This document shows positions 16,854 through 52,544 of a DNA stretch of 64,000 nt, in pieces. Where the stretch lies: positions 29,388,001 to 29,452,000 of the forward strand of contig OX597827.1 of assembly GCA_951406725.2 (NCBI GenBank), written 5' to 3'. Every line of letters begins with the position of its first letter. The stretch's first letter is position 1. Both the position numbers and the translations under genes were made by a program. Below the pieces are notes generated by a model that made no database searches, was not told the DNA's origin, and worked only from the letters and a program-made list of their open reading frames with translations. Source of the stretch: Octopus vulgaris. Taxonomy: Eukaryota.

Positions 16854-16892
<39 letters not shown>

Positions 16893-17052
16893 ACGGACTT
16901 CTTTCAGTTTCCGTCTATCACTCAATTCACAAGGCTTTGATTGGCCTGAGGCTATAGTAGAAAACATTTGCCCAAGGTGCCACCCAGTGGGACTGAACCC
17001 GGAACCACATGGATGGAAAGCTAGCTTCTTACCACACAACCACGCTTGCACC
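16893..17052 (-). mobile_element. SINE family B 5' half with intact head
   Basis: Minus strand GGTGCAAGCGTGGTTGTGTGGTAAGAAGCTAGC..GGTTCCGGGTTCAGTCCCACT..GACGGAAACTGAAAGAAG. Confidence 0.75.
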
Positions 17053-47740: not shown

Positions 47741-48043
47741 ATCACCGTGATCACCGTAACCGACCAGGCTATCAAATGTTACTACACATCGCTGGTCACA
47801 ATGCGCTTTGCATTGTTTTAGCCTTCAAAGGACGCCACTCCGCTGGCTATGCAAGTAGACCAACAGAAGAAAGAAAGAAAGTTGTGGCGAAAGAGTACAG
47901 CAGGGATTGCCACCACATCTTGCCGGAGTCTCGTGGAGCTTTAAGTGTTTTCGCTCAATAAACACAACGCCCGGTCTGGGAATCGAAACCGCGATTCGAC
48001 AACCGCGAGTCCGCTGCCCTAACCGCTGGGCCATTGTGCCGCC
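47741..48043 (-). mobile_element. SINE with family A head, third tail type
   Basis: Minus strand A box TGGCCCAGCGG and B box GGTTTCGATTCCC; tail shared with 16700-16807. Confidence 0.85.
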
Positions 48044-48143
48044 ATCAAAATAATATTAATCCCAAAACTTATAATTTACTAAATGTTAGTATATTTCTTC
48101 TTTCTTGTAATTACTGTTTCATTTCCATAAAATATATTGATAT

Positions 48144-48360
48144 AGGCGCAATGGCCCAGTGGTTAGGGCAGCGGACTTGCGGTCGGAGGATCGCGGTTTC
48201 GATTCCCAGACCGGGCGTTGTGTGTGTTTATTGAGCGAAAACACCTAAAAGCTCCACGAGGCTCCGGCAGGGGATGGTGGTGATCCCTGCTGTACTCTTT
48301 CACCACTCTAAAAGGCGGTGCTCCAGCATGGCCGCAGTCAAATGACTGAAACAAGTACAA
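48144..48360 (+). mobile_element. Chimeric SINE: family A head joined to family B tail
   Basis: Matches 2296-2456 up to TTTCACCAC, then AAGGCGGTGCTCCAGCATGGCCGCAGTCAAATGACTGAAAC and an A-rich tail. Confidence 0.8.
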
Positions 48361-48387
48361 AAAAAAAAAATAATAAAAAAAAAAAAT

Positions 48388-50240
48388 AGGTTCACAAAAT
48401 TCTTCTTGTGAATTCTAGTGGGCGTATCTCGCCAGAAAAATAAGAATAAGCCATTTGGATTACCTTTTTGGAATATTATACAAAGGATTCACTGTCTGTG
48501 CTATTTGTGAGATTTTTCTTTAACTTTTCCCTTCTTCTATTATTTCTTTCTTTCTAAATTTTGGTTCATTCTTTTCATTACTTTAATTTCAGTTTCCTCC
48601 CCTCCCCCTTATTTTGTTTTATTTTTATTCGGTTTAATTTTTTGGCAGACTGTCTTTTGAACTACCTTTGAACTGTTTTTTGACATGGCAGAGAAGGAAC
48701 TTAAAAAGAAAAACTCTGTCTTAGAGTGGGAAATTAACCCGCCTAAGCAATGGTTAAAAGATATGGAGGAGAAGACGATTGTACTTAGAACGTATTCTAA
48801 AGTTCTTAATTCCATCACCGTCTTCCCAAAACAAGTCATAAAAAAGAACATTTGTTCTCTGTAAAATATATATCCCGTGGTGTCAAACATGCAACCGTAT
48901 GGTTGTTATTTGACAACGGGGAAAAGGCTCGCCAGTTTGCGAGACAGCGTTTAGAAGGCAAGGAAATCCTGTTTCTCCCGTCATATTGTGGAAGAAAATT
49001 AATACGAGCCTGGATATGTGGGCTCCCCTCGGGCACCGAAGCGGATTGGATTGAAGATACCATCTGACGGGGACTGGGAGATGGCGGGCCCAGGCTCTTA
49101 AATGTAAGAGTATTGCCGGAGGTCGATTGGGAAGGGTCAAAAGCGATTTTGACCCTGTGGACCCCATCGGCCGCAACAGAACTGGTTTTTCCAGATTTCT
49201 TGAAAATGGCTGGCAGCAGGTATCCGGTGATACTTGAGGGACGTCCCCCAAAGTGTCACTCGTGCCTGCAGCCAGGCCACATTAAAAGGAACTGCCTCCA
49301 GGACCATGTTAAGGTCCTGGAACAGTCACTAGATGCCACCTCCCCTACCCGGTCAAAGGGAGAGGTGGATGTGATCGAGGAGGCTTCAGCCTTCTCAACT
49401 CAAAAAGGATTAAAAAGGAAGAAGGCAACAATAGTTGCCCGCCGAAGGAACCTAAGGCTTCGGAAGGCGGGGGAGAGTCTCCGGACAAAGCGGAAGAGCT
49501 CCACTCTCCCGAAGCCAGGAAGAAAAGAAAGAAAAGAAGGAAGAAGAACGGGTCATCTCAGCGGGGAGATGATGTGCCGACTGCATGTCCCGAAGTTGTG
49601 CCACCCACGGTGGAAGAAACCACCCCACCCTTAAAGATGATCAATTAATTATCTTTTTCTACAAGGGCGGGAGGTGGAAAAAATAGTAGAAGAACATAAA
49701 GAAACAGTAGATATGCCCTTCACACGGGATCCCGAATGGCCTCCGCAGATAGCTGTGGAGGTCATAAGGTTTCCCTTGTGGGAAAGTCTTAAAGGATTTG
49801 GGGAGGAATGTCGCATATGGCCGGGTGGCTCTTACACGACTTACATGTCCTACATGAGTGAGGCATGGGAAATGTTCTTTGTACTGTCTATACAGGAACT
49901 CAAGCGGCATTGAAGATAATGATGAATATATCGAAGAGTAGGAGGTGAAAGACCCTCGTCACAGGGTTTGAAACCTCATCTTATTGGATTAGTTTGTAGT
50001 GATTTATAACCTCAATTTTGTGCTTTAAGAAAAAAGAAAGAAAACATGTTAAGTAAGAGGTTCGAAACCTCATACTGATTTCAAAAAAAAAAAAGAAAAT
50101 ATGTTTTCGAGAAAGATCCAATCGGCGGGTGTTGGGTTTCGTCTCTCATTTATTCATTATATTTCATTTTCATTCATTAATGTATTTGTCCAGCCCGCAA
50201 AGTTCTTTGTACTGTCTATATGACAAATTTATGAAATAAA
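48388..50240 (+). mobile_element. ORF1-only L1/Tx1-like retroposon, copy 1
   Basis: T-rich 5' region; broken ORF 48685-49913; 3' region ending TGTCCAGCCCGCAA..GAAATAAA; no RT or endonuclease motifs. 5' boundary approximate. Confidence 0.7.
48685..49913 (+). pseudogene. L1/Tx1-type ORF1-like protein (RRM-like region, CCHC zinc knuckle, charged linker, C-terminal domain), frameshifted
   Basis: MAEKELKKKNSVLEWEINPPKQW..; YISRGVKHATVWLLFD; YPVILEGRPPKCHSCLQPGHIKRNC (CX2CX4HX4C); WPPQIAVEV..RIWPG. Confidence 0.7.
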
Positions 50241-51932
50241 GTAGCTGCCTTATCTCGCTTACCCATGCGTGAGTTTGTCATTCACTTACGAGAGTTAACA
50301 CTGTCAAGACGTGCTTGGAAGCCGTCTTGAATTAAAGAACCGTTGAAGTCGCGACTGCAAAGTAGGCATCTGTCTTTTAGGAATTCGGTGGGGAAATTTT
50401 ATTTTTTTATCTTGTTTTTTTTTCTTGAATAAGAAATCCTAACTGGGTCCTAGACATTTGTCTGCTGCGGATGCGCCGAGTGACTCAATTAGCTGTGAGA
50501 ATTGTTGTTTTGGTGGGCGTGTCTAAATACCAAAATTTGGAAAATTTATGAATTCGTGGAGGAATGTTTATGTGCTGCAACGCTGAACTGGAGCACCTGT
50601 ATTTTTGTGGATTATCTGAGTGGTGGAATTGTGTTGCCGTGAATTGAACTGTTTTCCTTCGTTCTTTTTTCTTTGCTCCGTCTTTCTGTTCTGTTTTTTT
50701 GTGTGTTTTTATTGGACCTTTTATTTGGAACATTTTGGATTTTGTGTTCAACATTTTTTCTTTTTTTTCTTTTTCAAGCATGGCAACAAAAAAAAACACT
50801 GTATTGGAGTGGCAAATTGTGGCCCCCAAGCAGTGGGAAGAAACTTTAATGAATGAACAGTGATGTTGAGGACATATTCTAAGTCCCTCGACACCATCAC
50901 TGTGGACTTGAAAAGGAGTTGGCAACTATTACGTTTATTGTAAAGGATGTCAAATATACAATGGTGTGGTTACTGTTTGATACCACTGGGGAGGCTCGAG
51001 ATTTTGCGAGCCAAACCTTGGAAGGGGAGAAAATTCTGTTTCTCCCCACATATGGAGAGAAGAAGGAACGAAGGCGGCAGAGGAGGCGGAGGACTCCTCA
51101 AAGAAGGGCCGCAAGAAGAAGAAGGTGAGCGATAATGGGTGCTCACCGAAGGATCCTAGGGATGAGGGAGGGGAGGCGAATCTCCCGGTTACGGAGGAGA
51201 CGCACCCTCCTCCAGCTAAGAAGAAAAAATGAAGAAGAGGAAGGAAAACAGGACATTGCCGGCAGTCGGTGACATAGTAACGGAATGTCCCGGAACGGCG
51301 TCGGTAGGGGTTGTGCCACCGGCAAAGGAAGAGACACTGTTGGCGGGAATTGTGCCGCCAACGGTAGAATTGACTACCACGACCCCGGAGGAAGACAAAT
51401 TATTGGTCTTCTACAGAGATGGAAAGGTGGAAAAGTGGTGGAAAGAAACTATAAGGGAGTACCTTTGACTTTCACACTGGAATCCTAATGGCCTCCGCAG
51501 ATAGCTGTGGAGGCCATAACGTTGCTCGTGATGCGTAGGCTGCAGGGAATCAAAGAGGAATATCGCTTGTGGCCGGGCGACGCCGACTCGAAGCCCGCCT
51601 TGGTTTAAACGAGGCGTGGGCGAAGGCGGAGTCTACGGGCACAAGCGACTTTGGGGAGGAAAATTGACACGGGGTTCAAAAGCCTATGTGTTATAATGTT
51701 TAAGTGTGTAAGAGGCTCAGCGCCTCAATTTGTAAATGGACTATTAAGTCCAATAATTGTAAAACGGAAGTAAGAGGTTCAATACATCGGTTTGTTTTTT
51801 GTGTAAAAAAATAATGTTTTAGGGGGCGTTTTTTGTCTTCTCCCATGAATATCATTTTATTTCATCAATGTTTCTGTCCAGCTCGCAAGCTACTCTGTAT
51901 CATGCCTTTATAGCAAAATTTTTTGAAATAAA
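50241..51932 (+). mobile_element. ORF1-only L1/Tx1-like retroposon, copy 2 (diverged, internally deleted)
   Basis: ATG at 50780 MATKKNTVLEWQIVAPKQW; VWLLFDTTGEARDFASQTLEGEKILFLPTYG; FYRDGKVEK; WPPQIAVEA..RLWPG; zinc knuckle region missing; same 3' end TGTCCAGCTCGCAA..GAAATAAA. Confidence 0.7.
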
Positions 51933-52302
51933 GTAGCTTGCTTACCAACCACATGGTTACAGGTTCAGTCCCACTGCGTGGCATTTTCGGCAAGTATCTT
52001 CTACTATTGCCACGGGCCGACCAAAGCCTTGTGAGTGGATTTGGTAGACGGAAACTGAAAGAAGCCCGTCATATAAATATATATATGTGTATGTGTGTGT
52101 GTGTGTATATGTTTGTATGTCTGTGTTTGTCCTTTCAACATCGCTCGACAACCGATTCTGGTGTGTTTACATCCTCGTAACTTAGCGGTTCGGCGAAAAA
52201 GACCGATAGAAATAAGTACTAGACTTACAAAGAATACGTCCTGGGGTCGATTTGCATGACTTTGGCCATGCTGGCCACAGTCAAATGACTGAAACACATA
52301 AG
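51933..52302 (+). mobile_element. SINE family B lacking its first ~25 nt
   Basis: Begins GTAGCTTGCTTACCAACCACATGG, just after the A box seen in the 16893-17052 copy. Confidence 0.85.
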
Positions 52303-52544
52303 AGGAAAAAAATGCAAAGATAAAGTGCATTTTCTAGTCTATACGCGTTGGGTCATTTCTTTTTCTCAGAAAAGTTGTGTCTGAAGATACATTGCACAAA
52401 AATTTATTTACGTGACTTTCGTGTCAGCCCTTGTGATAGTGTGCTGGTGTATTTCAGGCAACAGGGTTTTCGGATTTCTATGCTATGCCTTGTAATAATG
52501 GTTCTCGGTGCCCTCTGCGACACACACGTTCTTTTTCTTTTCTT

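Follow-up and report, generated by a model that had tools for sequence, protein, structure and literature searches.

What are the two related units that lie head to tail in one stretch of the Octopus vulgaris genome, each with a single reading frame and each ending at the same short motif? The stretch analysed here (the window) comprises 64,000 nucleotides of contig OX597827.1 (GenBank assembly GCA_951406725.2, positions 29,388,001 to 29,452,000 of the forward strand). [quoted passage not shown]

Two decayed ORF1-only units

An initial annotation, made from the letters of the window, had described two head-to-tail ORF1-only units without reverse transcriptase or endonuclease. Comparison of the units by blastn gave three segments with 70 to 76% identity, and a tblastn search of the whole window with the natural ORF2 of the complete LINE described below gave no match, in agreement with that description. 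The common 3' end, GAAATAAA, followed by GTAGCT at 50241 and 51933, the WPPQIAVE codons shared by both units (at 49737 and 51489), and the CCHC knuckle of copy 1 were also all present as described. The features, in window coordinates, are as follows (RRM, RNA recognition motif).

48396 to 50240, forward strand: copy 1, ORF1-only element of subfamily A; 90% identity to the full-length copies L124 and L137 over ~1.9 kb
48685 to 49941, forward strand: broken ORF1 of copy 1 (predicted RRM-RRM, CCHC knuckle, basic/acidic linker, C-terminal block); frameshifts and stops located by tblastn with pieces of natural sister ORFs
49254 to 49295, forward strand: CCHC zinc knuckle of copy 1; Pfam zf-CCHC, E 0.0021
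50213 to 50225, forward strand: 3'-terminal 4-bp hairpin of copy 1 (TGTC/GACA form)
50241 to 50253, forward strand: degenerate SINE target-site copy between both elements (target duplication); the same 13-mer stands at both ends of full-length B copies
50254 to 51932, forward strand: copy 2, ORF1-only element of subfamily B; 83 to 89% identity to the full-length copies L148 and L142 in three blocks
50780 to 51660 (end approximate), forward strand: broken ORF1 of copy 2; a deletion took the knuckle and the second RRM region
51903 to 51915, forward strand: 3'-terminal hairpin of copy 2, one pair broken
51933 to 52310, forward strand: target SINE body, opening with the duplicated 13-mer (51933 to 51945); matched to other SINE copies in the window, e.g., 81% to 16870-17030

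The ORF1 of both copies is interrupted by stops and frameshifts. The zf-CCHC match of copy 1 falls below the curated cutoff; that of a sister copy, L127, is above it (21.1 bits). Copy 2 has no knuckle because it lacks ~315 to 340 nt, at 51064/51070, that two full-length sister copies possess. Copy 1 matches family A only from 48396 onward, and the first ~180 nt of the family and the SINE head were found neither in the window nor in the upstream stretch L198.

A fixed 3' junction

Genome-wide searches, which like all tests here were made on natural copies, were run with the tails of both families. The best 40 of 424 candidates were scored for the B tail and the best 40 of 944 for the A tail, and the 30 best loci of each, including the window's own copy, were tabulated. 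At 28/30 loci the B tail passes, always at one base, into the SINE body. The A tail is at the site in 29/30, with 27 running into the SINE body and 2 into the next element through the same motif. The initial annotation had proposed site-specific insertion, and the 3' flanks proved uniform rather than random.

The exact 30-nt junction occurs 265 times in the genome assembly (G000; 2.8 Gb), and its reversed control does not occur. The corresponding unbroken string of SINE head and body occurs 28,609 times, so that inserts occupy about 1% of the exact sites of this SINE subfamily. For a second SINE subfamily the counts are 93 exact junctions and 4,092 unbroken sites, and 11 of 20 fetched loci contain a head followed by that subfamily's own variant. 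Copies are dispersed within SINEs on many contigs, with duplications.

The SINE is the insertion target

On the 5' side of family A, a SINE head was present in 27/30 matches and the 3' end of another element in 2; the window copy was the only one with neither. Thus, the concern of the initial annotation that the SINE 5' piece is missing upstream of copy 1 holds here but is specific to this locus. For family B, the head pattern was recognised in 26/30, a diverged head was identified by eye in 2 others, and 2 are tandems.

Truncated inserts also lie between head and body. Among 60 further junction loci, head-to-junction distances of 35, 40, 46, 145, 220, 284, 427, 492, 531, 748, 901, 967, and 1087 nt were recorded, and exact matches of 6 to 15 nt between both sides of the insert, the target duplications, were present in 11 of 13 truncated inserts. 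The 5'-truncated inserts at the same base range from 22 nt upward. The shortest (L250, L258, and L269) are merely ~22 to 30 nt of hairpin end and AATAAA amid duplicated target and could pass as SINE variants.

The tails are more uniform than the SINE sequence that they adjoin. Identity was 0.979 (n = 26) for the family A tail versus 0.856 for the adjoining 100 nt of SINE, 0.916 (n = 27) versus 0.859 for family B, and 0.999 (n = 27) versus 0.904 for the complete LINE. The SINE is the target of insertion and not a part of the element, because the head and a duplication stand upstream of full-length copies and truncated inserts occur at the same base. As proof of duplication, matching of the 13-mers is weak, and the case relies instead on this truncation series, on the divergence of the flanks, and on the second SINE subfamily.

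Almost every full-length copy is flanked by the same head and body, as expected if SINE head, insert, and body travelled together as a fixed composite, and at the 5' end of young full-length LINE copies a few of the element's own bases resemble the target. However, inserts of every length lie between head and body, and this truncation series already refutes a composite. Furthermore, the SINE flanks are far more diverged than the tails, inserts occur in two SINE subfamilies with matching variants on either side, and 28,609 exact sites are empty. We therefore give a composite element next to no credence, and the possibility raised in the initial annotation that the SINE is a fixed part of the element can be set aside.

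Stacking in tandem, also proposed there, was seen among A and B copies, in nests, and in mixed tandems of LINE and half-element. In two stretches (L140:627-3667 and L138:2612-6226), two or three different subfamilies are nested in one SINE with single target duplications between them.

[quoted passage not shown] None of the three full-length copies tested had a match of its 5' end to its 3' end. An LTR element was considered and ruled out, given the absence of terminal repeats and the presence of 5' truncations. In the SINE head, ARAGORN gave no tRNA hit, and Rfam gave none on an unbroken copy; the tRNA origin of the head stated in the initial annotation is a putative one.

A complete LINE at the same site

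Four junction loci (L171, L172, L176, and L190) hold the end of an ORF2. The complete LINE to which such ends lead is ~5.45 kb long and encodes an ORF1 with a zf-CCHC domain and an ORF2 with Exo_endo_phos, RVT_1, and zf-RVT domains; ORF2 is open over 1150 codons in L300 and L301. The last 217 nt are 99 to 100% identical in the 40 scored copies, and 30/30 loci run into the target motif at the same base, in the form of 27 SINE bodies, 2 tandem LINE copies, and 1 half-element (as the ORF1-only elements are called below). An autonomous element sharing the tail and the site, for which the initial annotation had advised a search, thus exists.

Among solved structures, the best relative of ORF2 is human L1 ORF2p (E 9e-67; R2 only 1e-19). 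The AP (apurinic/apyrimidinic)-type endonuclease, the reverse transcriptase, the C-terminal zinc-binding domain, and this closeness to L1 place the LINE in the L1 group. The type I ORF1 (RRM plus CCHC) and the sequence-specific insertion are traits of the Tx1 type. Database labels gave no clade name, as the listed ORF2 relatives were unnamed or hypothetical and included no named Tx1 reference. We infer from the traits that this Tx1-like LINE belongs to the Tx1 clade.

LINE and half-elements are linked in several ways. Their ORF1 proteins are homologous (LINE versus family A, 24% identity over 194 residues, E 3e-16), and mixed tandems exist in both orders, with a half-element upstream of the LINE in L295 and downstream of it in L303. 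A 4-bp hairpin, 15 to 18 nt before the end and ahead of the AATAAA terminus, is common to both. On 71 distinct tails, after merging of duplicates and prior exclusion of 7 loci that were too short or lacked the region, 93% of cells were paired and 14 cells had two-sided changes; none of 500 shuffles scored as high, and slid controls paired 7 to 73%. One half-element with head and ORF1 (L319) terminates at the target base although its last 70 nt are unlike the family tail.

Beyond the last ~45 nt, the 3' untranslated regions (UTRs) of LINE and half-elements have little in common, and families A and B predate the young LINE. Both observations would fit half-elements that target the SINE but were moved by a different LINE. 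That reading has to be set against the same base, orientation, hairpin, and end, the homologous ORF1, the mixed tandems, and the presence of older relatives of this LINE at the same site (L176, L190, L194, and L309). A different LINE as the mover is accordingly very improbable.

The young LINE also bears on the target sequences at its 5' side. Eighteen of 20 fetched copies retain the 5' end, and all 18 (stretches L291-L308) read ...TAACC there; in 8 copies with a variant 3' target the 5' side is still TAACC. The LINE RNA therefore appears to carry several target-derived bases, constant whatever the local SINE variant, and this explains part of the mismatch between 5' and 3' target copies. Transcription may start within the target duplication of the master copy. 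In one array of at least three units, as counted by junctions, the young complete LINE stands in tandem (L213 and L214, 5,454 nt apart on G000:C9).

An ORF1-only lineage under selection

The two units in the window represent two subfamilies of a genome-wide group of ~2.0- to 2.3-kb elements with ORF1 only. Between their duplications, 15 full-length A copies measure 1.9 to 2.3 kb and 7 B copies measure 1.4 to 2.3 kb. In family A this length is taken up by the leader (~465 or ~690 nt), ORF1 (about 1.25 kb), and a 3' UTR that is short, so that full-length copies have no room for ORF2.

The first 90 of the 265 junctions were surveyed, 30 with 1.5 kb and 60 with 6.5 kb of upstream sequence. Half-element tails were found at 67, of which 42 had an A- or B-type ORF1. 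Thirteen loci had LINE-type tails (7 with ORF2) and 10 were unclassified (2 with ORF2), so that ORF2 was present at 9/90 overall and half-element tails outnumbered those of the helper type about five to one at the sampled sites. No ORF2 was detected between ORF1 and junction in any of the 67 half-type loci or in the half-type loci among 20 more. The claim of a non-autonomous, ORF1-only family thus survived the search for a reverse transcriptase frame.

ORF1 is under purifying selection. The ratio of nonsynonymous to synonymous divergence (dN/dS) had a median of 0.17 (0.06 to 0.44) over 117 between-subfamily pairs, which are not independent, among 17 chosen copies (108 pairs finite, 9 saturated). 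Synonymous divergence among subfamilies is saturated (dS 1.3 to 3.1, A versus the others). In an ORF1 tree of 55 of 83 rows, made quickly after thinning of family A and the young LINE and rooted at the midpoint, 45 A/B-type rows formed one group apart from the LINE (Shimodaira-Hasegawa-like approximate likelihood ratio test [SH-aLRT], 100). Since half-element ORF1 is only 24% identical to LINE ORF1, the elements are not recent deletion derivatives. As in HAL1, the full-length element encodes ORF1 without ORF2, and it forms its own lineage with an ORF1 homologous to that of an autonomous LINE. One half-element subfamily has copies 92 to 99% alike (one further copy partly 70%), near the 98 to 99% of the LINE.

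Could the units instead be recurrent internal deletions of complete LINEs, with the selection on ORF1 inherited from complete ancestors that are now rare or were missed? Internally deleted copies of the complete LINE do exist (L297, L298, L305, and L257), an ORF1-only type of ~1.5 kb (L243, with L133 similar) has a LINE-type tail and, in the tree, an L243 ORF1 nearer the LINE, and rare complete elements could escape a genome search that was not exhaustive. On the other hand, the A/B-type ORF1s stand together apart from the LINE in the quick tree, their identity to it is low and the synonymous divergence among subfamilies saturated, and they share one layout, their own 3' UTR, and a C-terminal block without a significant match in LINE ORF1; the absence of ORF2 from all the half-type loci surveyed argues the same way. 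Recurrent deletion thus seems unlikely as the source of the two units, and a distinct ORF1-only lineage is preferred.

The L243 type is itself of interest. Because its ORF1 is nearer that of the complete LINE, a second, independent origin of half-elements at the same site is suggested, and this origin is likely for the L133/L243 type. Further examples of this second type, of ~1.3 to 1.7 kb with a LINE-like tail, are L133:5123-6600, L316, L322, and L328.

The 5' leaders differ among half-element subfamilies with related ORF1 (L121-L139; L138, L140, and L229-L285), and even within family A two or more occur (~465 and ~690 nt), which suggests repeated replacement of the promoter.

The ORF1 protein

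Pfam found the knuckle alone in half-element ORF1, and its L1 ORF1 model had no match there. An AlphaFold2 model from a 59-row alignment was confident (pLDDT, 87.9; pTM, 0.73), and the top Foldseek matches of the model were proteins with tandem RRMs (raver1, E 1.2e-4; NONO, hnRNPA2B1, and HuR). With VIA-align, the first lobe aligned to the La RRM (Z, 8.2; root mean square deviation [rmsd], 3.0; 83 aligned) and the second to U2AF65 RRM1 (Z, 7.9; rmsd, 2.8; 73 aligned). These scores are middling and show, at the level of the models, a fold in common with RRMs. The predicted layout of half-element ORF1 is thus RRM-RRM plus CCHC, i.e., type I.

A C-terminal block of ~95 residues is conserved across the subfamilies. 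It had no significant match in LINE ORF1, and modelling of it gave a poor result (mean pLDDT, 55.5). With ORF1 as query, a word-indexed protein search gave a single relative and a profile search gave 811 at E<=0.001. The six named entries among 10 profile matches that were looked up were octopod predictions; named relatives of the studied proteins came from Octopus and Argonauta. Several octopod gene sets carry ORF1 relatives (P0001, P0193, P0194, P0196, P0208, and P0214) as uncharacterised or mislabelled host genes.

Proposed mechanism

By analogy with L1-group elements, a half-element would be transcribed from its own 5' leader and its ORF1 protein would coat its own RNA. The ORF2 protein of the partner LINE would bind the 3' hairpin, nick the SINE immediately 3' of the A-box-like motif, and start reverse transcription at that nick (target-primed reverse transcription). 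As each insertion leaves two target copies, later elements could reinsert at either duplicate and so stack head to tail. The half-elements would thus be mobilised in trans by the partner LINE.

At the locus in the window, B likely inserted first and the younger A likely entered the upstream duplication of B; the greater uniformity of A tails, compared with B tails, makes A the likely later arrival. A local deletion that likely followed is the simplest account of why the SINE head and the first ~180 nt of A are missing.

Several points weigh against this reading. Three loci depart from the fixed 3' side: L037 (1/30 A tails) is off target and, among the B tails, four bases match in L016 and the end is missing from L018. 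The surveyed loci were picked by the junction itself, so that off-target copies are invisible to the survey. Identical 13-mers stand at both ends of only 6/26 two-ended copies, which is not a clean count of duplications; decay and element-borne 5' bases can explain this. An upstream head is not visible at 36/67 half-type loci, in many merely because 1.5 kb upstream was covered. A young truncated LINE copy (L289) lacks the head, and another (L290) has a clipped head and no duplication. The ORF1 tree, as a quick one, carries a warning of long branches. The hairpin shuffle count is no probability, since there are only four pairs and the sequences are related. Families A and B predate the young LINE, so that the helper they in fact used was probably an earlier relative of it.

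Other observations at the locus

Immediately upstream of copy 1, positions 48314 to 48395 are the 3' tail of another SINE with an A-run. Two opposed copies of another SINE-like repeat (47884-48306; 78% over 432 nt) lie directly upstream and may have favoured the deletion that removed the SINE head of copy 1. Near the end of ORF1 of copy 1, a 17-nt string (49875-49891) repeats the element's own 3' tail (50203-50219) and displaces a few bases there, possibly through a template jump or local conversion. In the family B 3' UTR, the copy number of a ~97-nt unit varies: the window has one (51725-51821), and L014 has about 13 (L014:285-1447). The motif at 51962 is presumably B-box-like; the SINE A and B boxes were judged by eye against the box consensus. 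A repeat search of the whole window was dominated by microsatellites.

Relation to known systems

Tx1-clade LINEs are described as targeting U2 snRNA genes, microsatellites, and DNA or LTR transposons; Tx1 inserts in Tx1D in Xenopus, and Tx1-Mar inserts in Mariner-N4_AMi and moves SINEU passengers to the same target (PMC4494074). The octopus system resembles these in its AP-type endonuclease and reverse transcriptase, its multicopy repeat target, and its non-autonomous passengers on the same target. In contrast to what is described for them, its target is a SINE promoter region rather than a DNA transposon, snRNA gene, or microsatellite, it is specific to one base in about 29/30 copies, and its passengers carry an ORF1 under selection; SINEUs, by contrast, are described as SINEs with snRNA heads. 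The target classes listed in the accessible part of PMC4640811 do not include SINEs.

HAL1 (half-L1) elements of mammals are likewise non-autonomous, ORF1 only, and of more than one origin (PMC5753468). They are derived from L1 proper and have a coiled-coil, type II ORF1, whereas the type I ORF1 (RRM plus CCHC) predicted for the octopus elements is described as consistent with Tx1 (PMC5203782). The octopus elements, with neither mammalian L1 origin nor type II ORF1, are thus not HAL1 proper. They have a single sequence target, and the accessible text of PMC5753468 makes no mention of target specificity for HAL1.

HeT-A at Drosophila telomeres also combines ORF1 only, a two-ORF partner, a restricted site, tandem arrays, and greater numbers than its helper. 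As described in PMC4700185, however, HeT-A adds to chromosome ends, needs no endonuclease, and has its promoter in the 3' UTR, whereas the octopus elements belong to the L1 group and insert internally, with duplication, into a dispersed SINE and not at chromosome ends.

A 2026 octopus repeat annotation reported recently active L1-Tx1 elements in O. vulgaris (13 families, 421 insertions, 2.29 Mb; PMC13282606). At ~5.4 kb each, these match the complete LINE by size alone; the paper gives counts only, and the words "target," "ORF1," and "nested" are absent from its main text. OR2 has been named as an octopus CORE SINE (PMC4758252). The open literature searched yielded no report of a Tx1 family in cephalopods that targets a SINE or has ORF1 only; Repbase, Dfam, and subscription journals lay outside that search, and an earlier database entry is possible. 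Each ingredient thus has a precedent (Tx1-Mar/SINEU, HAL1, HeT-A); their combination was not found in the literature searched, Repbase being outside it.

Significance

A broader picture is possible, although we hold it only tentatively: an old, selection-maintained radiation of ORF1-only hyperparasites may have captured a SINE-targeting LINE system, swapping 5' leaders. The C-terminal ORF1 domain, absent from the helper, may win ORF2 for the element's own RNA, and insertions that split the A and B boxes would silence SINE copies, in a three-tier system of SINE, LINE, and half-LINE across two SINE subfamilies.

The findings add a SINE promoter to the targets of AP-endonuclease LINEs and join single-site targeting with ORF1-only parasitism, which were known separately. 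With ORF1 under selection in many subfamilies, a standing question becomes testable, namely why non-autonomous elements retain ORF1 while borrowing ORF2. The young LINE, with its natural open ORF2, short 3' hairpin, and insertion precise to the base, offers a tractable system in which to study how the endonuclease finds its site and how the RNA is recognised. In octopus annotations, these nests may account for gene models that contain this ORF1, such as the predicted protein P0001, and for long "SINE" fragments.

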